Origin: an uncultured virus (IMG/VR IMGVR_UViG_3300032002_000001)
Lineage: Duplodnaviria > Heunggongvirae > Uroviricota > Caudoviricetes
DNA length: 64,000 nt
Reading direction: 5' to 3' (one strand)
Virus record (IMG/VR): IMGVR_UViG_3300032002_000001
Shown: one piece after another, positions 4,568 to 60,145 of the stretch
Layout of the letters: each line of letters starts with the position of its first letter
Numbering within the stretch: position 1 is the stretch's first letter
Translations under genes and position numbers: made by a program
Notes under the pieces: generated by a model
Told to the model about the DNA's origin: nothing
What the model saw: only the letters and a program-made list of their open reading frames with translations
Database searches by the model: none

Positions 4568-7531
4568 CTAGAGCTTGATGATGAAGTTGATCGCTACGTA
4601 CGGGGGAAGCACCGGATCATTATCCAGACCTCCACCGGTACCAGTATCACCGGTGATGCCGTGTGTGTGACCGCTGCCCGTCGTCTCTGAGGGCATGTTG
4701 GCGGCAGCAGTGGTGTTACCTTGCGCTGCTCGTCCGGTCGAGCCACCTGTAGAGGTACCACGCTGAACCTCGTGAGTGTGAGCCGAACCAGTGCTGTTGA
4801 TGGTTAATGTGCCAGCGCCGTGCGTGTGGTTCGGCAGCATGGCAGCAGTTAGTTCATCTGCACCACCTGAAGTACCCAGCGCACGAGAGGTAGCCGAGGG
4901 CTGAGTGGTACCCGCACCCAGCGGGAACTTCCCCTGCAGGTTAGGCAGGTTGAACGTGGTCGACCCATCACCTACACCGAAGGCCGTACCGATGTTGTCG
5001 AAGAGCTGCTTATCAGTCGTACGACTCTTCGTCGCTCCGTTGCACAGTGCCCAGCCAGGAGGAGCCGTACTGCCCGCGTACATGGTGATCGTGCCCGGTG
5101 GGATCAGCCCATCCAGGTTCACCGCACCTACAGCCGGGATAGTGGTGACCGGAGTGATCTGATCCGAGCGCTTAGAGGTGCTGACGATCTTCGCTGCGGC
5201 TGCTTCTGGGAAGTTGTTGGTGTCAGGAGGGATGTTCCCCGAGGTAGCGAGGGTGGCGTAGGACGCGGTAGTCACCCCGACCGCAGGCGTGGTCTGACGG
5301 TACATCGCGGTTCGACCAGGATCAGTCGCGTTTTTCCCGATGTAGATCTGCACCTGGTTCGGGTCATTGGTACCCGGAGACGCAGGAAGTGGAGCAGTAG
5401 TGACGACGATCTTGGACCGCTTCTTCGGGATGATCGACGCTCGGTTGGACTGCGGGGTCTCCCAGTCCGTGGTCTGGTCTCGGAAGTTGGTAGAGGAGAC
5501 CCAACGGGTGTTCGCGGTGTCCCCCATGGTCGCGTAGTAGTCGAGCTGGGTGTAGATCCGCATCAGCCCGGTCTGATCCATGGAGACGAACTTGTTCGCG
5601 TAGGTGCCCGAGGTCGGATACTCGAAGCCCACCTTGTTGGGCATCCCGGACTCCCAGCTCCGAGTAGGTGACTCGTCCCCAGTATTCGAGGCAATCGCTC
5701 GATAGGTACCAGTCCCCCAGGAAGAAGTGACCCAAGCCTGGATTCCTCCACCGAACCCAAAGTCAAAAGAGCCGAAGAGCAGACCACCGAGGTTGTAGTT
5801 GTACTCCAGTGTGGTGTCAGTAGTTCCCGTGGCAGTGAGTCCTCCACCGCTACCCGAGGGCACGGAGTACCAGCGCATCCGTAGCTTGTCGTCGTTTCCA
5901 TCCCGGTGCTGAGCGATCACGATCTCACCAGTGGCGTGGTCTACCCCGATGGCTGGGTTCTTGGTCCCGACCGAGTTGGACCAGGCATAAGTACCGTCAT
6001 TGGTGAAGGTAGAGGTGGCATGCCGGAGGACGAAGTATTGATCCGCCATCCGGTTGTCGTTGGCGTCCAATGCCTGGATGAGCTGGTAGATCTTCCCGCT
6101 GTGGTAGGCCAACCCACAGGTGACATAACTCTGTTGACTCCAGCCATAGCCAGCGTGGTTACCGGAGTAGTCGAACCTCTCCATCTCGGTGAAGTTCGCT
6201 CCATTGGTAGCGGTGTACCAATAGGTACCGTCCGTGACGAACCCCTGCCGCCACTCCCAGCCGCTACCTTCATCAAACTGCAGCGTGTCGTAGGTGGTGT
6301 CCACCTTGGGGGCAGAACCAGGAGGCTGCACACCAGCTGCCATCTGGATGGATGATCCCACCGGCAGCGTGGTGGTACCGCCCAGCTCAGTGCTGTTCTT
6401 GGTGTTCAGGCTCTCGAAGGTGCCCTCGCCCGCGACGATCACCATGCCCGCAGCAGGGTCGACATCGAAGAACGCTGTCCCGCCCTCAGGTGGATACGCC
6501 TTCAGAGTGCCGTCCTGGAGCTTGATCCCTTGGTTCGGAGCATCGACGGTCTGGATGGTGGCACCGGTGATGACCGCGTCATCCATGTTCCCGCCGAGGT
6601 CGGTAGGCAGTGTCTCTGGGGTAGTTCCCCCGAGGTTGCCTGCAGTGACCGTGGTGGTGTCCAACCCGTCGATCCCTGTGGGGAGATCTGACCACACCAC
6701 AGGTCCTACTGCGGTGCAGTAGTTGACCTTATTCCCGTTGTTGGTGTCGTACCAGAGATCACCGATCTCTGCACTGGTCGGAGCAGTATCTGCGTAGTAC
6801 GCGGTGATCTTGCCATCCGCTGTGGTCTGAGCGTCCTGAGCAGCCGACAGCGCAGCAGCAATCGAGTTGTCCTCGATCACCTGCCAGGTGAGAGTGGAGT
6901 CATTCCACCGGTAGGCCTGCCCATCATCGGTGTCGAACCACATGTCCCCGGCGTCATCTGCGTGACCACCGGTGCCGTTCGCCCATGGGGGTGTGGACTG
7001 GTAGTAGGTCCGGATCGCTCCGTCAGCTGTGGCCTGAGCTGCCTCAGCAGCGGTCATCGCGTCAGTAGCTGTGCTCTGAGCAGTAGCAGCAGCAGAGGCA
7101 GCAGCCATGGCGGTTGTGTTCGCCTCAGCCGACTGCGCTAGCGCATCAGCAGCATCGCTAGCCGCACCATCTGCTGTGGCCTGAGCAAAGGCAATCGAAC
7201 CATCACGCAGTGAGGTCCATGAGCCTGTCCCTGTAGCCGCAGCGCGGTAGGGATGGTTGCCATCGTTGGAGTCGAACCACAGATCACCAATGGACTGCGC
7301 TACAGGGGGCTCAGGACCAACGAAGGTGAGCAGCCCAGCGACACCACCGACTACGTCCTCCCAGGCCTCACCGTTGTAGACCTGCAGACCCTGAGTGTCG
7401 GTGCGGTAGATGATCTGTCCAGTGACGGAGACCTCGGGGAGATCTACCCCCGAGAACATCATCACCGTGGTGCCCTCGTAGGGCACTCGCTGCCCTAGCC
7501 GAGGTGACTGGGCATGGTCGAATCCCGTCAT
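4568..7531 (-). CDS. Tail fibre / receptor-binding protein with C-terminal tail-collar domain
   Basis: Three GD[LM]W[FY]D repeats with Ala-rich coils; collar motif IPPGTITMYAGSTAPPGWALCNG...FNLPNLQGKFPLG; HTH/HSH knob repeats; PPYVAINFIIK end. Confidence 0.85.
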   Translation of the reverse strand: MTGFDHAQSPRLGQRVPYEGTTVMMFSGVDLPEVSVTGQIIYRTDTQGLQVYNGEAWEDVVGGVAGLLTFVGPEPPVAQSIGDLWFDSNDGNHPYRAAATGTGSWTSLRDGSIAFAQATADGAASDAADALAQSAEANTTAMAAASAAATAQSTATDAMTAAEAAQATADGAIRTYYQSTPPWANGTGGHADDAGDMWFDTDDGQAYRWNDSTLTWQVIEDNSIAAALSAAQDAQTTADGKITAYYADTAPTSAEIGDLWYDTNNGNKVNYCTAVGPVVWSDLPTGIDGLDTTTVTAGNLGGTTPETLPTDLGGNMDDAVITGATIQTVDAPNQGIKLQDGTLKAYPPEGGTAFFDVDPAAGMVIVAGEGTFESLNTKNSTELGGTTTLPVGSSIQMAAGVQPPGSAPKVDTTYDTLQFDEGSGWEWRQGFVTDGTYWYTATNGANFTEMERFDYSGNHAGYGWSQQSYVTCGLAYHSGKIYQLIQALDANDNRMADQYFVLRHATSTFTNDGTYAWSNSVGTKNPAIGVDHATGEIVIAQHRDGNDDKLRMRWYSVPSGSGGGLTATGTTDTTLEYNYNLGGLLFGSFDFGFGGGIQAWVTSSWGTGTYRAIASNTGDESPTRSWESGMPNKVGFEYPTSGTYANKFVSMDQTGLMRIYTQLDYYATMGDTANTRWVSSTNFRDQTTDWETPQSNRASIIPKKRSKIVVTTAPLPASPGTNDPNQVQIYIGKNATDPGRTAMYRQTTPAVGVTTASYATLATSGNIPPDTNNFPEAAAAKIVSTSKRSDQITPVTTIPAVGAVNLDGLIPPGTITMYAGSTAPPGWALCNGATKSRTTDKQLFDNIGTAFGVGDGSTTFNLPNLQGKFPLGAGTTQPSATSRALGTSGGADELTAAMLPNHTHGAGTLTINSTGSAHTHEVQRGTSTGGSTGRAAQGNTTAAANMPSETTGSGHTHGITGDTGTGGGLDNDPVLPPYVAINFIIKL

Positions 7532-22742: not shown

Positions 22743-23126
22743 CTAGACTGAGATGTAGTGACGGACTCGATCCGGCCAGACGTACCTCTCCCGCATGACA
22801 ACGTCACCGGGCTCGTGGTAGAGCGTCTCCTTCCGGAAGACGTACTCCGTGAGCACCCGGATCCCCCCGTTGTGGGGGCAGGGACGGGGGTGGGACTTGT
22901 TGCAGTCGGGGCAGTAGCGCTTGATGAACTTCCCGCGCGGGGCGTCGGGGTAACACCTCAGGCAGGGACGCTGGTCTCGGATCTCATCCAGATCCACCTC
23001 ACGGGGAACCCCACGTTCCCCTCGGGGTGGCTTCTTGGTGATGTGGTAGCAGTCAGCCTCGCGGTGGAACACCTGATGTGATCCTTCTCCCACGAGGTAG
23101 ACCATTGGCATGGGAGGACGGTACAC
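22743..23126 (-). CDS. Cys/His-rich zinc-binding protein
   Basis: FH...DC, PCLRC, CPDC...CPH. Confidence 0.55.
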   Translation of the reverse strand: MYRPPMPMVYLVGEGSHQVFHREADCYHITKKPPRGERGVPREVDLDEIRDQRPCLRCYPDAPRGKFIKRYCPDCNKSHPRPCPHNGGIRVLTEYVFRKETLYHEPGDVVMRERYVWPDRVRHYISV

Positions 23127-23241
23127 CCGCTCCGGACGTGAAGGAACCCCCGGAGCTTCAGCTCGACGGGGGTCCTCCTCAGGCTGTTAGAGCCCACCTC
23201 TTCCCCAAGACCTCTTCCTGTCCAGAGAGGTAACACTCAGA

Positions 23242-23270
23242 AAGTTACAGGACAGCCTAGACACACGCAA
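23242..23270 (-). promoter_or_regulatory. Leftward promoter for the replication operon
   Basis: TTGCGT-17-TAACTT on the minus strand. Confidence 0.5.
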
Positions 23271-23459
23271 CCACCGGGTGTACCTTGCCCGTATTCCCCA
23301 AGTGCCCTCACCTGGACCAGAGAGAAGTTGATGCAATTGTCCTAGACCAGTGAGTACCTCACCCAGGTGAGCGGGTACGGCCCTGGGTCACCAACTAACC
23401 GTAGTACAGGACAACCGAGGCGCGACGACTTCACGGAGTCACCACCCACTGCCTCTAAG

Positions 23460-23473
23460 CGAACATGTGTTCG
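23460..23473. promoter_or_regulatory. LexA (SOS) box
   Basis: CGAAC-ATGT-GTTCG matches the Gram-positive/actinobacterial CGAAC-N4-GTTCG consensus. Confidence 0.65.
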
Positions 23474-23585
23474 TTAGTGACCTGCAGGCTCGCCAAAGGG
23501 TCGGTCTATGTCTTAGACCAGGATGATCTCTCTACTCTCACCAGGTTTTCTTCGATACCCAGTGCCATTGCTGTAGAGAGTAGAG

Positions 23586-23596
23586 TGTGGTACAGT
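23586..23596 (+). promoter_or_regulatory. Extended -10 promoter P0
   Basis: TGTGGTACAGT. Confidence 0.55.
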
Positions 23597-23601
23597 AGTT
23601 C

Positions 23602-23752
23602 CGTAGTCCCCACCCAGAGGCAAAAGTTCCTCACAGTGGTGTAGTGGTACTACCGTCCCAGTAGGGAGCGAAACTACCCCCAGGTAGTTCCCTAGCTGGT
23701 TACCCCCGAAGGATGAGACATATGAGCTCTAGGCCTTCGGGGTTGTTTATTT
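23602..23752 (+). ncRNA. Candidate ~150-nt three-hairpin sRNA
   Basis: Lies between P0 and the hairpin CCCCGAAGG/CCTTCGGGG plus T-rich tail; no credible ORF. Confidence 0.45.
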
Positions 23753-23760
23753 GTGGTGTG

Positions 23761-23771
23761 TATGGTATGCT
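23761..23771 (+). promoter_or_regulatory. Extended -10 promoter P1
   Basis: TATGGTATGCT preceded by a GTGGTGTG tract. Confidence 0.6.
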
Positions 23772-23889
23772 TAATCCATCTCCTTGGGACCCCTATGTAC
23801 TGAGAAGTTAGGCAAGGGGTCAGGAGATAGCCCTCGTGGTGATCACTCACCCGGGGGTTTTTTCATGCCCAAGAAAAGAGGAACAGCTG

Positions 23890-24195
23890 ATGTACACCTT
23901 GCAAGACGCCCTTCAGGGCAAACCAATGCCGGAGGAGTTCCTCCGGACCTGCAGTACCGAAGTGATCCAGATCTGTTACCAGTCCATGGAAACGACTCTG
24001 GAGATCGTCCAGGAAAAGATCAAGGCCACCGAGGCCCTCCTGGAAGTCTGTTCTCCTCTCGGTGAAGGGAAACCAGACCGGGAAGAGACTCTCCGGGAAC
24101 TCCGAGCAGCTCTTGATGAGCTGATCCTCTACACCCGGGATCTCCACGAACAGCAACTCCGGATGGAGAAGATCCTCCAGGAGAGATCCTCATGA
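23890..24195 (+). CDS. Early coiled-coil protein
   Basis: AAAAGAGGAACAGC leader before ATG 23890. Confidence 0.65.
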   Translation: MYTLQDALQGKPMPEEFLRTCSTEVIQICYQSMETTLEIVQEKIKATEALLEVCSPLGEGKPDREETLRELRAALDELILYTRDLHEQQLRMEKILQERSS

Positions 24196-24446
24196 AGCCC
24201 TTCGAGGAGATCGAGGTAGAACGGTTGGCTATCCGTTCTGAGTTCGACCGGTTGAAGAAACTCGACCCGGTCTTCATGACTCGGAAAGAACTCCGCCAGA
24301 TGGATAGGGACTTCGACAAGCTCCTTCGGCGGATCAACCTTTGGAATCACGCAGTTCTGGAGTACGCCATGGAACAAGAGGTGGAACTCCTGGAGGCTAG
24401 TGCTCAACTGAAAGAGGTTCGGGCACGACTCGGTTACATCGACTAG
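24192..24446 (+). CDS. Coiled-coil hypothetical protein
   Basis: ATGA overlap, GGAG RBS. Confidence 0.6.
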   Translation: MKPFEEIEVERLAIRSEFDRLKKLDPVFMTRKELRQMDRDFDKLLRRINLWNHAVLEYAMEQEVELLEASAQLKEVRARLGYID

Positions 24447-24591
24447 ATCTCCTCTGGAGATCCTCAGACCTATCTGGGTCTTTGCATGCTTGACATGGAA
24501 CTACACGAAAGGACAACCCCGATCTGCGGGGGTAGGGAGTTAGCTGTTCCTCCTTACCCCCGCTTTGTCATGAACAGCTAAGGAGAACATC

Positions 24592-24906
24592 GTGATTGCA
24601 CATTGGGTGAAAGTGATCTACCTGGCTCTGTTCCTGGTGGATCTCTGGGTGATGACCAACCTCTGGAATGTCCTCGGAGGTGGGGTCTACGGGATCTTGA
24701 TCGTTGCCTTCGGGATCCTGAACCTCACCATCGGGATGGGGGTCATCCAGATGGCCTACCTCTACTCCTTCCGCAAGGAGATGGAGGAGGAAGAGGACCA
24801 GGAGATCGAGGTCCACACCTTCCACTACACCGTGGAGAAGGATCCCGACTCCAAGGTGATTCAGCTGATCGACTCTCGGGAACCGGATCTACCTCCCGTG
24901 TCATGA
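24592..24906 (+). CDS. Two-TM membrane protein
   Basis: Two hydrophobic helices, acidic tail, AAGGAG RBS. Confidence 0.65.
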   Translation: MIAHWVKVIYLALFLVDLWVMTNLWNVLGGGVYGILIVAFGILNLTIGMGVIQMAYLYSFRKEMEEEEDQEIEVHTFHYTVEKDPDSKVIQLIDSREPDLPPVS

Positions 24907-25139
24907 CGATTCGGGAACAGATCATCACCGTCAAGGTGACCTGGGACGACCTGGAGGAAGACGGCTGTCTTCCTCAGGACGTTGAAGGATGCTGTGGGGA
25001 GGCGTGTGAAAACACGGTTCCCTCTGCCGCGACGAAAGTCGTGGAAACCATGGAGTGCTGCGGTGGATGCCGAAAGGTGGAAGTCCTGCAGTCCACGGAA
25101 CCTCGTGAGGTGCTCAGCCAGAGCACCTTCAACAGTTAA
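24903..25139 (+). CDS. Cys-rich hypothetical protein
   Basis: MTIREQIITVKVTW...CC...C...CCGGC. Confidence 0.5.
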   Translation: MTIREQIITVKVTWDDLEEDGCLPQDVEGCCGEACENTVPSAATKVVETMECCGGCRKVEVLQSTEPREVLSQSTFNS

Positions 25140-25149
25140 GGAGAACTGG

Positions 25150-25494
25150 TTGAAAAGTGTTGCCGATTACCTCGCGGACACCCGCGAGTACATCGATCAG
25201 AAGGGCTGGACCCAGGGTCGTTACCGGGACCTCAACACGGGTGCAGTCTGTTCCCTCGGGGGCATTCAGCAGGTGCTGGTCCAGGATGGTGTGGATCTGA
25301 GCACTGGTCAGGGACTGCGCCTTTTCCACACAGTTGCTGAAGCCTTTGCCAAGGTGGTCAGGACGAGGATCTCATCCACAGCCACCATTGCGGTGTGGAA
25401 CGACACCCCCACTCGTACCAAGCAGGAAGTGCTGGACGCCTTTGCCAAGGCCGAGAAGATCGAGAGGGCGGGTTTCGACCCTGATGCCCAATGA
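25150..25494 (+). CDS. DUF6197-like protein, paralogue 1
   Basis: TTG with AAGGAG; GWTQG...CSLG...WND.P.RT..EVL. Confidence 0.65.
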   Translation: MKSVADYLADTREYIDQKGWTQGRYRDLNTGAVCSLGGIQQVLVQDGVDLSTGQGLRLFHTVAEAFAKVVRTRISSTATIAVWNDTPTRTKQEVLDAFAKAEKIERAGFDPDAQ

Positions 25495-25865
25495 AGCCAG
25501 TCGCGGACATCCTCGCGGACGCTCGGGAGTACATCGAAAAGCACGGGTGGACTCAGTTCACGCTGAGATCACCTGGGCGCAACGTGTGCTCCATCGGTGC
25601 CATCTGCTACAGCCAGAAGTGGTACGGCGACAACGTGCTGGCAGAACGTCAAGAGGAGCTTCAGGCTGTTTCTCGGGCTCTGGTCAAGATCGTGGGCAAA
25701 AGGTCCGAGTATCCCGGTATGACGCCAGTCGACCGGGTGATGGACTGGAACGACGACCTGGAAACCTCCACCCGGGAAAAGAAGAAGAAGGCCAAGCAGG
25801 AGGTCCTGGACACCTTCGCCAAGGCCGAGAAAATCGAACGCGCGGGTTTCGACCCGGACGCGTAA
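25491..25865 (+). CDS. DUF6197-like protein, paralogue 2
   Basis: GWTQ...CSIGAI...WND; C-terminus nearly identical to paralogue 1. Confidence 0.7.
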   Translation: MKPVADILADAREYIEKHGWTQFTLRSPGRNVCSIGAICYSQKWYGDNVLAERQEELQAVSRALVKIVGKRSEYPGMTPVDRVMDWNDDLETSTREKKKKAKQEVLDTFAKAEKIERAGFDPDA

Positions 25866-26642: not shown

Positions 26643-26716
26643 GGGTTTATAGCTCAACTGGATAGAGCGCCGGTCTACGGAACCGGAGGTTGCGGGTTCG
26701 AATCCTGCTAAGCCCA
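26643..26716 (+). tRNA. tRNA-Arg(ACG)
   Basis: Acceptor GGGTTTA/TAAGCCC, D arm GCTC/GAGC, anticodon arm CCGGT-CTACGGA-ACCGG, T loop TTCGAAT; CCA not encoded. Confidence 0.95.
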
Positions 26717-26750
26717 CGCAGTACCCAACACACCAACAAGGAGAACAGCT

Positions 26751-27143
26751 ATGAACAGCTCACAGCAGCCTCCGGAGTTCATCAAGGACCCGGAGGAGAC
26801 CGACAGCCCCACCTGGGCGTCCCTCTTCGGATCGGACCCCGACTACCCGACCGGGGAGCCCACCCTCTTCGAGGCCATCGCGGACGCCTGGAAGAAGTCC
26901 TACGACCAGATGTCCCCGGAGCGGAAGCAGGTGCACGAGAACTTCAAGAAGAACATCACCGATCCGATCACCTACGTGGAGCTCTCGGTGATGATCGTCT
27001 CCCTGGCCCTGCTGAAGCGCAAGCGGGGCTGGAGCCGCAAGAGGACCGTGCTCTGGTTCCTGCTGGCCAACGAGGCCTACTCCGCCGTCCGTAGGCCGGA
27101 GGAAGCCAAGCTGGCCTACAAGGTCATGATCGGGAGGAAGTGA
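26751..27143 (+). CDS. Hypothetical membrane-associated protein
   Basis: AAGGAGAACAGC leader. Confidence 0.65.
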   Translation: MNSSQQPPEFIKDPEETDSPTWASLFGSDPDYPTGEPTLFEAIADAWKKSYDQMSPERKQVHENFKKNITDPITYVELSVMIVSLALLKRKRGWSRKRTVLWFLLANEAYSAVRRPEEAKLAYKVMIGRK

Positions 27144-28283: not shown

Positions 28284-28732
28284 CCGAGATCCCGCTGGGC
28301 TACATAGCGGGGATCCTCGACGCGAACGCGATCTTTCGGGTTCGCACTACCCCTGGGGGCACTGAGCTACCAGCTGTACATGTGCACGGGCTCCCTATGC
28401 CGATCATGACCGTCCTGGCGAAGTACACCGGGACTAAGGTCACCACGGTGACTCGGGACTACTCCCGGTCTCCGTGTGCCGAACACTGTGATGAGAGACA
28501 TCAGCATGTCGTCTCCATCTCAGGTCGGTGGTCGGTCACGGGAGCCCGTGCCACGGTGCTCATCCACGCGATCCTTCCCCATCTGCAAGCCCAGCGGTAC
28601 GCCGCCACTGAAGTGCTGGCGGTAGGTCTCTCCGCTCCAAAGAAGTCCACGACGTACAACAAGATGGCTCAGCTCGGCTGGCCCATCCCAGCACCACCGG
28701 AAGAAACAACAACGAAGGAGAACAGCACATGA
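28280..28732 (+). CDS. Single-motif LAGLIDADG-like protein with degenerate motif
   Basis: LGYIAGILDANAIF, RWSVTG..A..LI.AILPHL; Cys/His insert CAEHCDERHQH. Confidence 0.65.
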   Translation: MTEIPLGYIAGILDANAIFRVRTTPGGTELPAVHVHGLPMPIMTVLAKYTGTKVTTVTRDYSRSPCAEHCDERHQHVVSISGRWSVTGARATVLIHAILPHLQAQRYAATEVLAVGLSAPKKSTTYNKMAQLGWPIPAPPEETTTKENST

Positions 28733-28833: not shown

Positions 28834-29149
28834 CAGCGGCAAGACCCATGACGCGCGGGCTCTGCCCTAACGCGTCCTCCGAGGGATGTAGAACCTCTCC
28901 AATTCTGTGATGGCTTCGGCCATCCTGCGTGGGGGGTCCTTCGGGACCCCCCAGAAAGGCAGTCATGCGTCACCTGCTGAACTATCAGTCCCTTTCTTCC
29001 CCACCCGCCCACAACGCTCATCTCGGTTCTCTTTCTTCACCAAACGTTGTTGACCAGTTCTCCATGTCCCCCGAGAGGGGGAGAGGTGAGGTGCGCCTCC
29101 ATGGGGAAGTGGTGGGGGTTCTACACGCCGCTACGACGCGGCGTTTTTT
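28834..29149 (+). ncRNA. Candidate ~320-nt structured RNA
   Basis: Two UUCG hairpins, one GAGA tetraloop hairpin, long-range helices, ends in hairpin plus T6. Confidence 0.6.
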
Positions 29150-29167
29150 CATGTCCGGAGGTAACTG

Positions 29168-32535: not shown

Positions 32536-32545
32536 TTCTCCACCA

Positions 32546-32573
32546 GGCCCCCAGCATCCAGCTGGGGGCCTTT
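32546..32573 (+). terminator. Hairpin plus TTT(GCATG)
   Basis: GGCCCCCAGC-ATCCA-GCTGGGGGCC-TTT. Confidence 0.55.
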
Positions 32574-32610
32574 GCATGTCCGCACCATAACCAACGAAAA
32601 GAGGAACAAC

Positions 32611-32994: not shown

Positions 32995-33033
32995 TTCACC
33001 CCGCAACACAACCAACCAAAGGAGAACAGCACC

Positions 33034-33216: not shown

Positions 33217-33318
33217 AGACCCGCACCCGCTAGCTCACAGCGGATCACCAAGGTGCGTGGCCCCGGCACCTGCGAACACGGGGCACCTGCTAAATAACCA
33301 ACGAAAAGAGGAACAGCA

Positions 33319-36872: not shown

Positions 36873-36930
36873 ATACCTGCGTGAACCAACCAGAAACCCA
36901 ACCACTGCAACACCCAAGGAGAACAGCAAT

Positions 36931-37968: not shown

Positions 37969-37981
37969 GAGGAACAACCAA

Positions 37982-38735: not shown

Positions 38736-38863
38736 GTGAGCGTCCTTGGGTAACCATGTTCAACCCACCCAGGGCGAGGCCCCCACCGTGATATGGATCC
38801 CTCTGTGGTCACGGTGGGGGCTTTTGCATGTCCAACCAACACAACAACGAAAGTGAGTGCACC

Positions 38864-48079: not shown

Positions 48080-48165
48080 TCCACAGTCGTCTCCCCGGGG
48101 GTACTGGTCGCCACTCGGCCCCCGGGGAGACCCCACAACTTCCCCCTAACCAACAGAGGAACAGC

Positions 48166-49574: not shown

Positions 49575-49775
49575 CTTCCCGGTGAGCTCATGGGGGAGCT
49601 GACCGTGGAGATCACCGTGAATAAGGGTTCGTAGTAGCCCGTGCAAACCAGGAACCCTGCGGGGACCCGTCTTTCCTCTTTTCTGAGGTTCCCAAGACAA
49701 AGGTCTGGGTGAGTTTGCTAGTAAAAACCCGTTGGTGGGTTCTCACTTGGATGCTTTCTGTTAGGCACGGCGATG

Positions 49776-49816
49776 GCCCCCCTCCTTCGGGAGGGGGGCT
49801 GTCGGGATCTTTTTTT
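49776..49816. terminator. Terminator at the convergence of the accessory and tail operons
   Basis: 10-bp GC stem with TTCG loop, T7 run downstream. Confidence 0.7.
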
Positions 49817-49849
49817 ATGCCCAAAATGTGACAGGAGTGACTGGTGGGA

Positions 49850-57200: not shown

Positions 57201-60145
57201 AGCTCTGCGAGCATGGTGTTGGTGGCGTCGTAGAAGGCTCCAACGTCCTCCTGGTACCGGATTGCCTTCTGGGCTTCGGAGGAGTTCATCATCACTCCAC
57301 CAGCGGCAGTCCTCCGGACTCGCTCCTCAACCCCAGGACGCTGACCGGGATCGACTACCCGCATCAGCAGCGACATGTACTCCGCGTCCTGCGGGCCACC
57401 CATCAAGTTGCGCTCTTTGACCAGGTCCTCGAAGTCGAGACTGGCTGCGGTGAGTTTGGCGGCACCTTCAGTTGCCATCCACTGCTCTAGCTGCGCATCC
57501 CGCTGCTCAGTGGTTCCCTTGAACTTAACTCCGGATTCCCGAGCAATGTCTCTGGCTACACCCCTAGCCAGCTTTGCGTTCACATCTTCGATGAGCCACT
57601 CACCCGTCAGTTCCTGTTCGCTGGGACCGATACCTACGGTGGCCCCGACAGAGGTGAGGAACTTACTGGGATCGGTAATCAGGTGGTGTGGCCTAGCAGT
57701 TTCTACATCCTCCTTGTACTCCTGAAGACGCTTCAGGTCAGCGTCTGCAGCCTTCTGGTACTCCATAAACCCAGTACCAGACTCCATGACCTGCTGGCCG
57801 ATTTCCCGGGTGGCCTCGATGCTTTCCGCGATATCCCCAGGAGCCTTCTTCATGTCCAGGAAGGCACCAATCCCAGCACCAGCCGCAGCGGCAGTAGGAC
57901 CGAACATCATGCCCATGGCACCGAGCTGAGCCATGTTGCTCTCTACGCCCGTGGCACCCATGACGGCCATACCCATGGCCCCGGTGGTCATCATCGCCAT
58001 ACGGCGGTTCTGCATGGCAGCAGCGGCCATATCTGGGGTAGCCCCAGCTCCAGCCCGGAGACCACCAAAGGTCGCTCCGGCCATCGCCCCCAAGGTCTGT
58101 CGGAATCCCTGTGTCAGCCCAGCCATACCCTTGCGAGCACCATCAGAGGCGGTAGCCAGTCGCTGGTGAGTATCGATGATCTTCGCAGCGGCCCGTTCCT
58201 GCTGTGTGGCAGCGGTGAGCTTCTGTTGGGTCTCTGCCCGAGTGGCACGGAGACCATCCAGCTTGGTCTGACGCTCTTGGGTAGTCATCCACGGGTCAGA
58301 GTGAACTGCTCGAATCTGAGCACGTGTGTCTTCCATCCGGGTGCTGTATTTGCCGACATCACCCATTGCCCGAGACAGGTTCGCTCGATCCTTAGCCCGC
58401 ATCCAGGGAGCAGTCTGCTGCATCCAGGTAGAGCGATCAGTAGGATCGGCGTACCGCATCTGGTCGTACTGAGGCACCAACAGTTGCCGCATACCCGCGC
58501 CCATTGCCCCAGCGGCATAAGACAAAGGAGCGAGCGGTAAACCGCCTCTAGCCTGCCAGTCCCGTACAAATCGGTTAGGCCGCCAGTTCGGATCACGATT
58601 CAGTCGTTCCTGGATGTAGCGATCCCTCAGATTGGAATACATCGACCCCGGAGCCGCACCAGCGTTGTAGAGACCTCGCTGGACCCAGGTACCACCCTGA
58701 GCGATCTGTTGTCCGTGCTTGCCTGCGCCCGTAGCCATGTAGGTGCCATCGGGTTGTCGGACGATTGGACCCCCAGCACCCCTCATGGCTTCACGGAACC
58801 CGTAGGCACCTGAGTTCCGGAACAGAGTGAAGGCACCAGCCATCTTCAGGAGCGCACCGGCGAACAACAGCATCGCTCCGGCACCACCAGCAAGCGGGGC
58901 GAGGATACCTGCGATCAGCTGGGCGAACTCTCCGAAGGGTCCCTGCACGATCTTGCGCATGGTCGAGGCCATCTTCTCCGCGCCAGACATGAAGCCTGTC
59001 GCGGCTGGACCCCACAGTGTGGCCATGGACTCCGCAGTCATCTTCATCTCTTCGCGGAGCTTCTCGAACTCGTCAGAGAGACCCTCCATCGCCTTTTCAG
59101 CGCCACGGTGGGCAGACCCCTTGGCCTGATCGCTCTCGGCCATCCCGAGGGCTTCCCGGATCCCTCCCGCCTGGTTGACCACAGCAGTGATCGAGCGCAT
59201 CGACCGGGTGCCGTCCAGACCCAGACGGTTCAGTTCAGTAGCCGCACGCGGTCCCATCGCCTGCAGGGCTTCGAGGATCTGGACGACCTTCTCGCCGCCC
59301 TCCATCTTCTTGAACTGGTTCTGCGTGACGCCCACCAGGTTGGCGAACTTAGCTACCTCTGGTGACCCCGACTGCATCGAGTAGGAGATGTCGTTGACGA
59401 CCTTGTTGAAGACGTTGGCAGCCTGGAAACCGTCCTCGCCCGCACGAGAGAAAGCGGTAGCGAAGCCAGCCAGTTCAGTCTGGGTGATTCCGATCTGGCG
59501 ACCAATCGGGGCCAGTTGTTTGGTGAACTCGATCAGCTGCTGAGCGGATCCGCCAGTCTGAGCTGAGAGATAGGTGAACTGATCTGCATACCTTCTGGTG
59601 TTCCGGGCGTTGACATCGGTGCCCATCACCTTCTGCAGACTGATCAGCGAGGTAGCCAGACCATCTGAGTTCTCGCCGGTGGCCTTAGACATCTCCACGA
59701 AGACCTTGGAGAGATCACCCAACTCCCGCGTCTGCCGCAGAGAGGTCATCTTTGCCAGGGTCTGAGTGAGCTTGGCAGCCTCAGTAGTGGTGGTACCGAA
59801 CTCCTGACGGACTCCAGCCACCGACTTCTCGTACTGCTTGAAGACCGTCTGCTGCTGAGTCTGAGACCGGGTGAGGATCGCAGCCTGAGCGTTTAGCTGA
59901 GACACCTGCTTTTCGTACGAAGCCCAGGCAGCAGTAGCCCCAGTGATCATGGCGATGTCTGCAGCCGCGATCCCGATCAGGCCCTTACCGGCCGTCTTGG
60001 TGAGCCCCTTAACCTTCTGAGTCAGGGTGTCGATTGACTTCCCGAGTTGGTCCGTGCTTCCGGCCGAGGCCATCATCGCCTGGTCGTACTGGCTGTTGTC
60101 TGCTGTCAGTACGACGTTCGGGTTGATGCTTTCTTCCGCTGCCAT
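54272..60145 (-). CDS. Tape measure protein with M23 peptidase and SLT-type transglycosylase domains
   Basis: 1957 aa, Ala/Gly helical core; YAHLS...TSGPHLHFE; GEAGFDNHAQNPTSTAYGMGQFL. Confidence 0.93.
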   Translation of the reverse strand: MAAEESINPNVVLTADNSQYDQAMMASAGSTDQLGKSIDTLTQKVKGLTKTAGKGLIGIAAADIAMITGATAAWASYEKQVSQLNAQAAILTRSQTQQQTVFKQYEKSVAGVRQEFGTTTTEAAKLTQTLAKMTSLRQTRELGDLSKVFVEMSKATGENSDGLATSLISLQKVMGTDVNARNTRRYADQFTYLSAQTGGSAQQLIEFTKQLAPIGRQIGITQTELAGFATAFSRAGEDGFQAANVFNKVVNDISYSMQSGSPEVAKFANLVGVTQNQFKKMEGGEKVVQILEALQAMGPRAATELNRLGLDGTRSMRSITAVVNQAGGIREALGMAESDQAKGSAHRGAEKAMEGLSDEFEKLREEMKMTAESMATLWGPAATGFMSGAEKMASTMRKIVQGPFGEFAQLIAGILAPLAGGAGAMLLFAGALLKMAGAFTLFRNSGAYGFREAMRGAGGPIVRQPDGTYMATGAGKHGQQIAQGGTWVQRGLYNAGAAPGSMYSNLRDRYIQERLNRDPNWRPNRFVRDWQARGGLPLAPLSYAAGAMGAGMRQLLVPQYDQMRYADPTDRSTWMQQTAPWMRAKDRANLSRAMGDVGKYSTRMEDTRAQIRAVHSDPWMTTQERQTKLDGLRATRAETQQKLTAATQQERAAAKIIDTHQRLATASDGARKGMAGLTQGFRQTLGAMAGATFGGLRAGAGATPDMAAAAMQNRRMAMMTTGAMGMAVMGATGVESNMAQLGAMGMMFGPTAAAAGAGIGAFLDMKKAPGDIAESIEATREIGQQVMESGTGFMEYQKAADADLKRLQEYKEDVETARPHHLITDPSKFLTSVGATVGIGPSEQELTGEWLIEDVNAKLARGVARDIARESGVKFKGTTEQRDAQLEQWMATEGAAKLTAASLDFEDLVKERNLMGGPQDAEYMSLLMRVVDPGQRPGVEERVRRTAAGGVMMNSSEAQKAIRYQEDVGAFYDATNTMLAELRDKGLSYQEIIKSSEKTQQILGDPNSREYELQTALSGRAQAMIQFNQPYQTRTAGFKAQIGAMGAIMGVKPRTDEQAEQFEQTRDTFVQSVTEQYQYFQQLLYQQREFDISMARGLEDFNLQRDRMDEQYHLGRQRQQDDFHLSRVRQEQDYQLGRERAEFDYNLQRERGSDDYFRSVRRSQADFNRNRRRQEQDHNHQVVLMAEQAAKQLYSIYDRVKVESTNSATYLLYNAGDQLQKMREQSQNLDELRQMGVSDDVIQQMGLTDTANSQQLERFVAELADNPNLVKQFNKQIRQRLKAARELVTDESSSDWEEFQRQYRISRRRAANDFERSVQRGHKDFQRQMDRMEEDFQRSMNRQAEDYEKAQKRQQQDFSKSMKRGAEDYGIAVDQMTDDFHKSQRRAAEDLERSAEEITGSLTKMLRKATNELGGNAADQAGIVLEALRDLRREAGMEGNSLMEVMSEIFGFDFKPVKVKGPRKPGDIRPGNGVENDTGKGAVGGVAAGGVLPGYTPGKDVHQFHSATAGDLHLSGGEAIMVPEWVQAVGGPAAVARMNTKARSRTGPVSFASGGIPALGEWSAHSHADYDWTRWAGDINIPGSGDYGNPVRAYKPGTVAAVVYMGDQSYGRYIKINHPDSNEQTLYAHLSRARVDVGDEVKRGEVIGNVGDIGRTSGPHLHFEIMGGTGPIQTGGGVSVSPRRQLSSILKDRYPDLEAAAAKVTLGGGFPEGWWSKRMNRWARKAYNQMAPRGAAGSDHQGIPPSPADGSNQELMHKAMKQFGWNQWNALYKLEMGEAGFDNHAQNPTSTAYGMGQFLDSTWATVGGHKTSDPWLQSVYMMRYIKENYGDPRNAYRQWASRSPHWYGDGALFDSPQTIGVGEKGPEAVIPLNERGADFIYDIMQKTKVGAQGKAVGLTGSTPVLANTIHNYQIDRSTTFTGAITVQANNPGELIHQLRARQRTAALSQAAIGGARV

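Follow-up and report, generated by a model that had tools for sequence, protein, structure and literature searches.

A probable terminator-type hairpin with a loop antisense to a start-associated motif in an uncultured tailed phage

Start-associated sequences (SAS), found a few nucleotides (nt) before the start codons of certain phage genes, have been known in actinobacteriophages since 2011. In cluster K mycobacteriophages they follow the 13-bp consensus GGGATAGGAGCCC (Pope et al. 2011, PMC3203893), and in cluster EF Microbacterium phages the 13-bp consensus GGGAAAGGACCCC (PMC7302621). In the literature, including papers of 2024 and 2025, their role is called unknown and an RNA partner is left open (PMC3203893, PMC12699233, PMC11373665). 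Pairing between a structured RNA and a translation start region is described from other systems. For example, the c4 antisense RNA of P1 and P7 is, according to PMC8198154, a small structured RNA that lies upstream in its target operon (immI, c4-icd-ant) and represses by pairing. In repZ of ColIb-P9 and repA of pMU720, a hairpin loop pairs right beside the Shine-Dalgarno sequence of the regulated gene, as described in PMC8053102. Here we consider a hairpin (24526-24563, + strand) in a 64-kb stretch of DNA, about 60% G+C, that is a portion of an uncultured tailed phage (IMG/VR record IMGVR_UViG_3300032002_000001) and is referred to below as the window. The loop of this hairpin is complementary to the start region of the next gene and carries the antisense of a motif that leads ten of the phage's own genes. 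From the sequence, we propose a terminator-type hairpin that plausibly doubles as an anti-start-site RNA, and we put the probability of this reading at roughly 0.42.

The hairpin is intergenic and lies on the same (+, coding) strand as its neighbors, within the 145 nt that separate the second rightward gene (24192-24446) from the third (24592-24906), 80 nt past the stop codon of the former and 28 nt ahead of the start codon of the latter. The 5′ arm GCGGGGGTAGGGAG (24526-24539) and the 3′ arm CTCCTTACCCCCGC (24550-24563) enclose the 10-nt loop TTAGCTGTTC (24540-24549). Both arms were read from the sequence and recovered by a repeat search (14 nt each, 93% complementary, 10 nt apart). The stem of the initial annotation is present with all of its 14 pairs, ten of which are G-C, but the pairs are not all perfect: 13 are Watson-Crick and one is G-U (24535/24554), which is tolerated in the + strand RNA only and becomes an A-C mismatch on the other strand. 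In RNA folding, the hairpin alone has -27.5 kcal/mol and occurs in both the minimum free energy and the centroid structure, and its loop is predicted to be unpaired with a probability of 0.98-1.0, but 0.51 at two positions. Within the 3′ arm, CCTCCTTA resembles the anti-Shine-Dalgarno sequence. Downstream of the stem is the T-rich tail TTTGTCAT (24564-24572), which has 5 T in its first 8 bases, with a longest run of 3, and runs into CATG (24569-24572).

The exact reverse complement of the whole loop, GAACAGCTAA, starts 8 nt past the stem (24572-24581, + strand), and its final two bases are the first two of AAGGAG (24580-24585). The initial annotation had claimed both this match and its overlap with AAGGAG, and both can be read directly from the sequence. 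AAGGAG is part of the translation start region of gene 24592-24906 (24580-24594, + strand), which further contains a copy of the start-associated motif, GGAGAACATC (24582-24591), and the start codon GTG (24592). The target is itself a partial extra copy of the motif just ahead of this real copy, and it spans codons 2-3 and the stop of a 3-codon mini-open reading frame (mini-ORF), ATG AAC AGC TAA (24570-24581). The sequence ATGAACAGCT at 24570 occurs again as the start of gene 26751.

The match between loop and target was compared with those of other hairpins in the phage and its relatives. The relatives were collected through alignment of the DnaB helicase, which gave 80 metagenome-contig loci, 63 viral-contig loci and 80 genome-contig loci, the last of which all hold cellular DnaB of at most 32% identity. 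The window and the loci of 17 relatives (418 kb, both strands) yielded a null set of 327 hairpins with stems of at least 10 pairs and loops of 6-12 nt, for each of which a complement of the loop was sought up to 60 nt downstream. The hairpin at 24526-24563 is the sole one with a 10-nt loop complement, the next best match being 7 nt (four cases), and 10 nt were reached in 23 of 200,000 shuffles of the hairpin's own downstream 60 nt. The complementarity is non-random: it is not attributable to chance because none of the other clade hairpins exceeds 7 nt.

The loop is also related to a set of leaders elsewhere in the window. The initial annotation had noted a leader motif recurring before accessory genes, and the counts bear this out: GAACAGC occurs 25 times against 8.8 expected (standard deviation 2.9), a number reached in 0 of 100 shuffles, and (GAGG/GGAG)AACANC occurs 14 times against 1.9 expected from first-order Markov simulations (maximum 6 in 40 runs). 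The motif core is the 10-nt sequence (GAGG/GGAG)AACAGC, which stands 0-3 nt ahead of a start codon for 10 of the 11 copies on the + strand. The motif-led starts all belong to the rightward accessory block (23.9-48.2 kb); as a rule, an intergenic gap and a CA-rich leader precede them. Besides the copy ahead of GTG 24592, they comprise GAGGAACAGC at 23878-23887 (2 nt before ATG 23890), GGAGAACAGC at 26740-26749 (1 nt before ATG 26751), and copies at 28717-28726 (2 nt before ATG 28729, which opens a 34-codon ORF), 33021-33030 (3 nt before ATG 33034), 33308-33317 (1 nt before ATG 33319), 36918-36927 (3 nt before ATG 36931) and 48156-48165 (directly before ATG 48166). The variant GAGGAACAAC is found at 32601-32610, directly before ATG 32611, and at 37969-37978, 3 nt before GTG 37982.

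Three motif copies lie on the other strand, namely two AACACC variants within genes and an exact GAGGAACAGC in the hairpin. This sole exact inverted copy (24543-24552) is made up of the loop and the first three bases (CTC) of the 3′ arm, and loop positions 24543-24549 read GCTGTTC, antisense to the GAACAGC core. Because the only exact inverted copy in the window falls at this place, an RNA carrying the hairpin would display the antisense of the phage's own start motif. The complementarity to the leader of gene 23890 covers 24543-24552 and reaches 11 nt when T 23888 is counted: AGCTGTTCCTC (24542-24552) is the exact complement of GAGGAACAGCT (23878-23888), which ends 1 nt ahead of ATG 23890, and this second match of the initial annotation also holds when read from the sequence. 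Ahead of gene 26751, GAACAGCTA is complementary to the loop over 9 nt.

Some of the leaders resemble one another beyond the motif. A 22-nt leader, ATAACCAACGAAAAGAGGAACA, precedes both gene 32611 (32589-32610) and gene 33319 (33296-33317) on the + strand, and from this repetition it follows that whole leader modules have been duplicated. In the leader of gene 26751, the start motif is followed by a tandem repeat, GAACAGCT-AT-GAACAGCT (26743-26760), and a tRNA-Arg gene (anticodon ACG; 26643-26717, +) is located 33 nt ahead of this gene.

The hairpin also belongs to a wider class of elements. Five other + strand hairpins of the window are followed by a T-run, (C)ATG(T/C)CC, a leader and a start codon. 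They are found at 23830-23870 (hairpin, T6 at 23858-23863 and CATGCCC, in the leader of the first rightward gene), 29125-29157 (hairpin 29125-29144, then TTTTTTCATGTCC), 32545-32582 (hairpin 32545-32571, then TTTGCATGTCC), 38779-38834 (hairpin 38779-38821, then TTTTGCATGTCC) and 49771-49823 (hairpin 49771-49804, then T7 and ATGCCC, at the end of the rightward block). The T-run and (C)ATG(T/C)CC of these elements occupy 23858-23870, 29144-29157, 32571-32582, 38822-38834 and 49810-49823, respectively. In phages of 52-62% DnaB identity, the hairpin/T-run/CATGYCC pattern occurs at 19 sites in the loci of 14 of the 15 relatives examined, each time behind a predicted hairpin and in 18 of the 19 cases on the strand of the rightward genes. 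Ten sequences from these sites, taken as orthologous by alignment only with the downstream gene unchecked, show compensatory (double-sided) changes in 10 of 22 predicted pairs, and CCC/GGG, the T-run and CATG are invariant across them. We take the class to consist of terminator or attenuator hairpins, or possibly of processing or stability hairpins. Its conserved CATGYCC flank corresponds neither to a consistent reading frame nor to a sigma-70 hexamer; CATG as a leaderless start codon was rejected, its frames relative to the downstream gene being inconsistent across the elements as judged by eye. One of the relatives, L084, carries a hairpin/T-run/CATGTCC element (~5050-5084, - strand of the locus) whose 7-nt loop, GTCCCCC, is complementary over its full length to a GGGGGAC located right after the CATGTCC flank and ahead of the next ribosome site. 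A 7-nt match of this kind is within chance for 327 hairpins.

By its flank, the 24526 hairpin is a member of this clade-wide terminator-like class. The flank, TTTGTCATG, shares the T-run and CATG of the class on the strand of the rightward genes, and with AAGGAG 8 nt past CATG and GTG at 24592 the class's spacing of about 10-45 nt to the ribosome site and start codon is kept. We regard the hairpin, from its sequence, as probably a terminator-type RNA hairpin that ends or attenuates the first two-gene unit. Like a Rho-independent terminator, it has a GC-rich stem-loop and a T-rich tract and stands after a stop codon in an intergenic gap on the coding strand. Unlike such a terminator, it has a loop of 10 nt rather than the usual 3-8, its T-run is short and interrupted, and 8 nt separate the stem from the next gene's start region. 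With the start region so close, read-through must be substantial unless a promoter overlaps the hairpin. No sigma-70-like promoter was called in 24447-24525; a candidate with TTGACA at 24490 was rejected, as it has no -10 element at 16-18 nt and is absent from the promoter scan list. Two further small hairpins (24446-24462 and 24466-24481, +) come right after the stop codon of gene 24192-24446, and the second, followed by TTTGCATGC, is a weak copy of the hairpin/T-run/CATG pattern.

Beyond termination, we suggest that the loop pairs with the start regions that carry GAACAGC, in cis through a 7-9 bp pseudoknot and possibly in trans; this part of the proposal is tentative, and we would place it somewhat below even odds. 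RNA ending at the hairpin, or reading through it, would display the antisense of start regions in an open 10-nt loop. In a read-through transcript, 7-9 nt of the loop could form pairs with GAACAGCUAA, next to the ribosome site of the gene that follows, and the resulting compact pseudoknot would dampen or tune the translation of gene 24592. A terminated or processed 3′ fragment, shielded by the hairpin, could pair with other GAACAGC leaders: gene 26751 would offer 9 nt, gene 23890 8-11 nt and each of the others 7 nt. On this view, the hairpin would close the first early transcription unit and at the same time act as an anti-start-site riboregulator, and it may serve as a built-in antisense brake on translation at motif-led starts.

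The geometry of the cis pairing limits its length. With all 10 bp formed, loops 1 and 2 would be left with 0 nt and the 14-bp stem would have to be spanned by 8 nt; with 7 bp formed, loop 1 would have 3 nt. In the classical geometry of H-type pseudoknots worked out by Pleij and co-workers, there is no closure without linker nucleotides. On these grounds, the H-type pseudoknot put forward in the initial annotation is sterically unlikely in its full 10-bp form, and what stands is a version of 7-9 bp, which appears feasible. The 7-bp helix GCUGUUC/GAACAGC is predicted to have a duplex energy of -9.0 kcal/mol, and when the stem arms are blocked, the best fold holds a 9-bp loop-target helix with a gain of -8.3 kcal/mol.

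A similar arrangement was found in cluster K mycobacteriophages. Adephagia (JF704105) has 16 rightward SAS copies and one leftward copy, and the leftward copy falls precisely within the 10-nt loop, CCUCCUAUCC, of a long, GC-rich hairpin that stands between genes 92 and 93 (~58661-58713, + strand fold). The surrounding noncoding stretch of ~180 nt (~58599-58779), which contains multiple hairpins and is near the right genome end, is matched in 142 Mycobacterium phage records. Of 13 cluster K genomes sampled, 9, all of them Anayavirus, have the loop CCUCCUAUCC unchanged, and the stem varies through G-U and compensatory changes. As in the window, the Anayavirus hairpin (clusters K1 and K5) is intergenic, GC-rich and on the strand of the early genes, and has a 10-nt loop antisense to the phage's own start motif. 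It differs in that its loop holds the anti-Shine-Dalgarno part, it has no T-run and no nearby cis target, and it is one of several hairpins in the conserved noncoding stretch. No description of it was found in the cluster K literature searched, a search outside which the ZoeJ paper (Dedrick 2019) falls. In the accessible text of PMC12699233 the words hairpin, antisense and reverse are absent, and in that of PMC3203893 hairpin is used only for the extended SAS (ESAS). From its sequence, the Anayavirus hairpin is a candidate anti-SAS RNA. Pairing in trans of the window hairpin with GAACAGC leaders is indirectly supported by this parallel, and it is weakened by the other SAS phages that lack such a loop.

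Several observations count against a pairing function. In cluster K, the homologous loop is not anti-SAS in Ekdilam, Shandong1/TClif and ShedlockHolmes, and in Ekdilam and Shandong1 the same SAS is still present in many copies despite the diverged loop; no covariation of SAS and anti-SAS was seen across the cluster K subclusters. In cluster EF, AnnaSerena has 10 SAS copies and no inverted copy at up to 2 mismatches, and none of its five inverted matches with 3 mismatches is a loop copy. As an anti-motif hairpin is absent from these other SAS-bearing phages, it can be at most an optional modulator. Closer to the window, relatives with 52-62% DnaB identity are without the GAACAGC leader motif. 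When 13 window proteins were compared by tblastn with the relatives' loci L001-L025 and L081-L118, matches were obtained for the last leftward gene, the DnaB neighbors, the primase and the DUF6197 genes, and no counterpart of genes 23890, 24192 and 24592 was found. A blastn search with 24440-24600 against the relatives' loci gave no match, and in 20 of these loci there was no anti-motif hairpin, only coding-region matches without loop context. The hairpin stretch is identical in contigs of three of the four sequencing runs examined (low coverage; X14 has no cover there), and this identity in the contigs of three other studies implies the same strain only, with no variation.

Other adverse points concern the element itself. 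Part of the 10-nt match follows from the shared motif, as both partners derive from the same repeated leader module. The anti-Shine-Dalgarno half of the inverted copy is buried in the 14-bp stem, so that the exposed part amounts to 7-10 nt. The -8.3 kcal/mol gain falls between the 5th (-9.1) and the 25th (-4.8) percentile of 807 clade hairpins, and with so unexceptional a value, energy alone does not single out this hairpin. The terminator assignment is affected as well: AAC rather than the YCC of the class follows CATG, the strict class pattern does not match (three bases instead of at most two separate TTT from ATG), and the T-run is short. The hairpin is also missing from the output of a consensus terminator scan, because its 10-nt loop exceeds the usual 3-8 nt.

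The main rival reading is that of a plain terminator or mRNA-stabilising hairpin, in which no pairing is used and the loop match is a relic, a by-product of the copying and recombination of leader modules, one module having ended up inverted in the hairpin and a partial copy in the next leader. We take this to be a serious contender, although we would not give it even odds either. It accords with the clade-wide hairpin/T-run/CATG class into which the hairpin fits, with the 22-nt leader common to genes 32611 and 33319, and with the tandem GAACAGCT at 26743-26760 and the presence of ATGAACAGCT at both 24570 and 26751; the loop and target are conserved in no relative examined, and the energy gain of the pseudoknot is unexceptional. 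On the other hand, there is no known mechanism by which an inverted copy would come to sit precisely in the loop of a 14-bp hairpin that is nearly perfect, and by a rough hand estimate the chance that the 7-nt core falls antisense in one of ~12 intergenic loops is ~1 in 300. The match also runs 3 nt past the shared core, and the Anayavirus loop, which has the same property, is invariant while its stem varies. If pairing is not used, the hairpin would be of an ordinary terminator type, set in an orphan region of this uncultured phage.

A role at the DNA level appears improbable. Here, the inverted repeat TTAGCTGTTC-N22-GAACAGCTAA would act like a stoperator or ESAS, bound by a phage DNA-binding protein for which the GAACAGC boxes are sites as well. 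The repeat is perfect over 10 bp, with centers 32 bp apart, or about three helical turns, and for the ESAS repeats the cluster K authors prefer DNA-binding proteins (PMC3203893). But the motif copies have one orientation and stand at a fixed 0-3 nt from start codons, which suggests a role in RNA and translation more than one in DNA binding; in addition, one arm of a 14-bp palindrome separates the half-sites, and the G-U pair fits a + strand RNA.

Still less probable is a leader-peptide-coupled pseudoknot of the ColIb-P9 repZ or pMU720 repA type, in which the loop-target helix would act as an activator of GTG 24592, and translation of a 31-codon ORF (24486-24581) or of the mini-ORF (24570-24581) would open the structure and couple termination to initiation. 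The 31-codon ORF does cross the hairpin and has its stop codon at 24579-24581, the end of the loop complement, 10 nt before GTG, and in IncI1 and IncB/O plasmids translation of repZ needs a ribosome-site pseudoknot and a leader peptide, as stated in PMC8053102. Against this, the candidate ATGs at 24486, 24495 and 24570 are preceded by no Shine-Dalgarno sequence, ATG 24486 belongs to the recurrent TTTGCATG flank motif and does not itself indicate a gene, and the 31-codon ORF is present in no relative; a ribosome crossing the hairpin would, moreover, melt the very loop needed for pairing. Least tenable is the two-state switch of the initial annotation, in which hairpin and loop-target helix would alternate and decide termination or translation: loop and target are able to form a 10-bp helix alone (-10.4 kcal/mol), but the hairpin is more stable by 17 kcal/mol and has already formed in full when transcription reaches the target, no aptamer-like region is conserved, and Rfam gave only a tRNA at gathering score and nothing meaningful at E<=1, the sole match over 23100-24700 being a eukaryotic small Cajal body-specific RNA (scaRNA) below threshold.

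Regarding the wider setting, leftward genes up to 23126, among them those for DnaB helicase, primase, the Pol III alpha subunit and RuvC, are followed by a rightward block of mainly small orphan genes (23890 to ~49574) and then by leftward tail genes. The gene behind the hairpin (24592-24906) encodes a small protein of 104 amino acids with hydrophobic stretches; neither it nor gene 24192-24446 matches a Pfam or PHROG family, and no relatives of the two proteins were found in viral contigs. DNA searches of 23700-25700 against GenBank phages, near and distant, gave no match. When viral contigs were scanned for exact patterns, neither a 19-nt piece of the hairpin nor an 18-nt piece of a leader had a match (0 for each), and a query with DnaB alone likewise matched no pattern there. 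The window stretch is present in 20 soil and rhizosphere DNA runs, and the same listing gave no RNA run, which carries no information on expression. The DnaB protein cluster is represented on a contig of 83,610 bp. Closer DnaB relatives, with identities of 66-77%, were detected as proteins, and the contigs encoding them include ones of 65.8, 48.0 and 45.6 kb. The nearest cellular DnaB relatives (at most 32% identity; loci L144-L223) are mostly metagenome-assembled genomes of Solirubrobacterales and other Actinomycetota, which offers a weak hint of a host in the phylum Actinomycetota and of nothing beyond that.

Two further features lie on either side of the hairpin. Within the 764-nt divergent noncoding region (23127-23889), a noncoding patch at 23359-23460 is conserved with relatives: its identity to L084 is 80% over 81 nt, shorter matches occur in L082, L094, L081 and L001, and a diverged contig in run X20 also covers it. 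The area is possibly a noncoding RNA or a regulatory or origin region, and downstream of the patch is a terminator-like hairpin (~23704-23742) followed by TTGTTTATTT. Further along the rightward block, genes 25150-25494 and 25491-25865 (+) form a tandem paralogous pair. DUF6197 is matched by the product of the second (E 6.6e-15), which also has a weak match, below threshold, to the Thoeris inhibitor family Tad6, and homologues are duplicated in several relatives too.

The start motif of the window can be compared with the SAS of clusters K and EF as PMC3203893 and PMC7302621 describe them. Both are asymmetric and combine a Shine-Dalgarno core with bases unable to pair with 16S rRNA; both stand in one orientation, a few nt before the starts of non-structural genes behind gaps, and both have one stray inverted copy. 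The window motif is a different, shorter sequence that does not match the 13-bp consensus of either cluster; it is not shared by relatives at 52-62% DnaB identity; and the window phage is unrelated to the SAS phages, its best GenBank phage match for DnaB being Gordonia phage GMA6 at 30.7% identity. Because its sequence differs from that of SAS, the motif is, as judged from that sequence, an analogue and not a member.

Arguing by analogy, one may speculate that actinobacterial phages with a start-associated motif encode a matching "anti-start" hairpin RNA, a generalization that we consider doubtful. Such an RNA would be the 3′ end of an early transcript and would throttle the motif-bearing gene set by pairing at ribosome sites, which is again an unlikely rather than a likely outcome. 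Were it so, the window and Anayavirus hairpins could be convergent examples, with the cis pseudoknot as the nearest target in the window, though we hold this to be improbable to much the same degree. If true, it would explain why the motifs are conserved beyond the Shine-Dalgarno core, give the phage a one-RNA handle on a whole gene class, and provide the long-unexplained SAS with a testable partner, most easily in Adephagia, for which genetics and RNA-seq exist.

Among loops that pair near ribosome sites, the rpsO (S15) operator is a further case, in which a hairpin loop pairs beside the Shine-Dalgarno sequence of the regulated gene. The repZ, repA and rpsO operators form short loop-target helices with linkers and have a partner (antisense RNA, leader peptide or S15), whereas in the window hairpin the whole loop is complementary, there are no linkers, stem 1 has 14 bp, and there is no known partner. 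For c4, Citron and Schuster reportedly found in 1990 pairing between its loops and sites that overlap the ribosome site of icd. This RNA is processed, with multiple helices, ~77 nt and two pairing loops, whereas the window has a single hairpin with one loop, and no c4-like Rfam match was found at E<=1 among 4227 families, in which the inclusion of the c4 model is unchecked. By analogy, and although the hairpin is a member of neither group, its closest working models would be the c4 RNA of P1 and P7 and the ribosome-site pseudoknots of the IncI1 and IncB plasmids.

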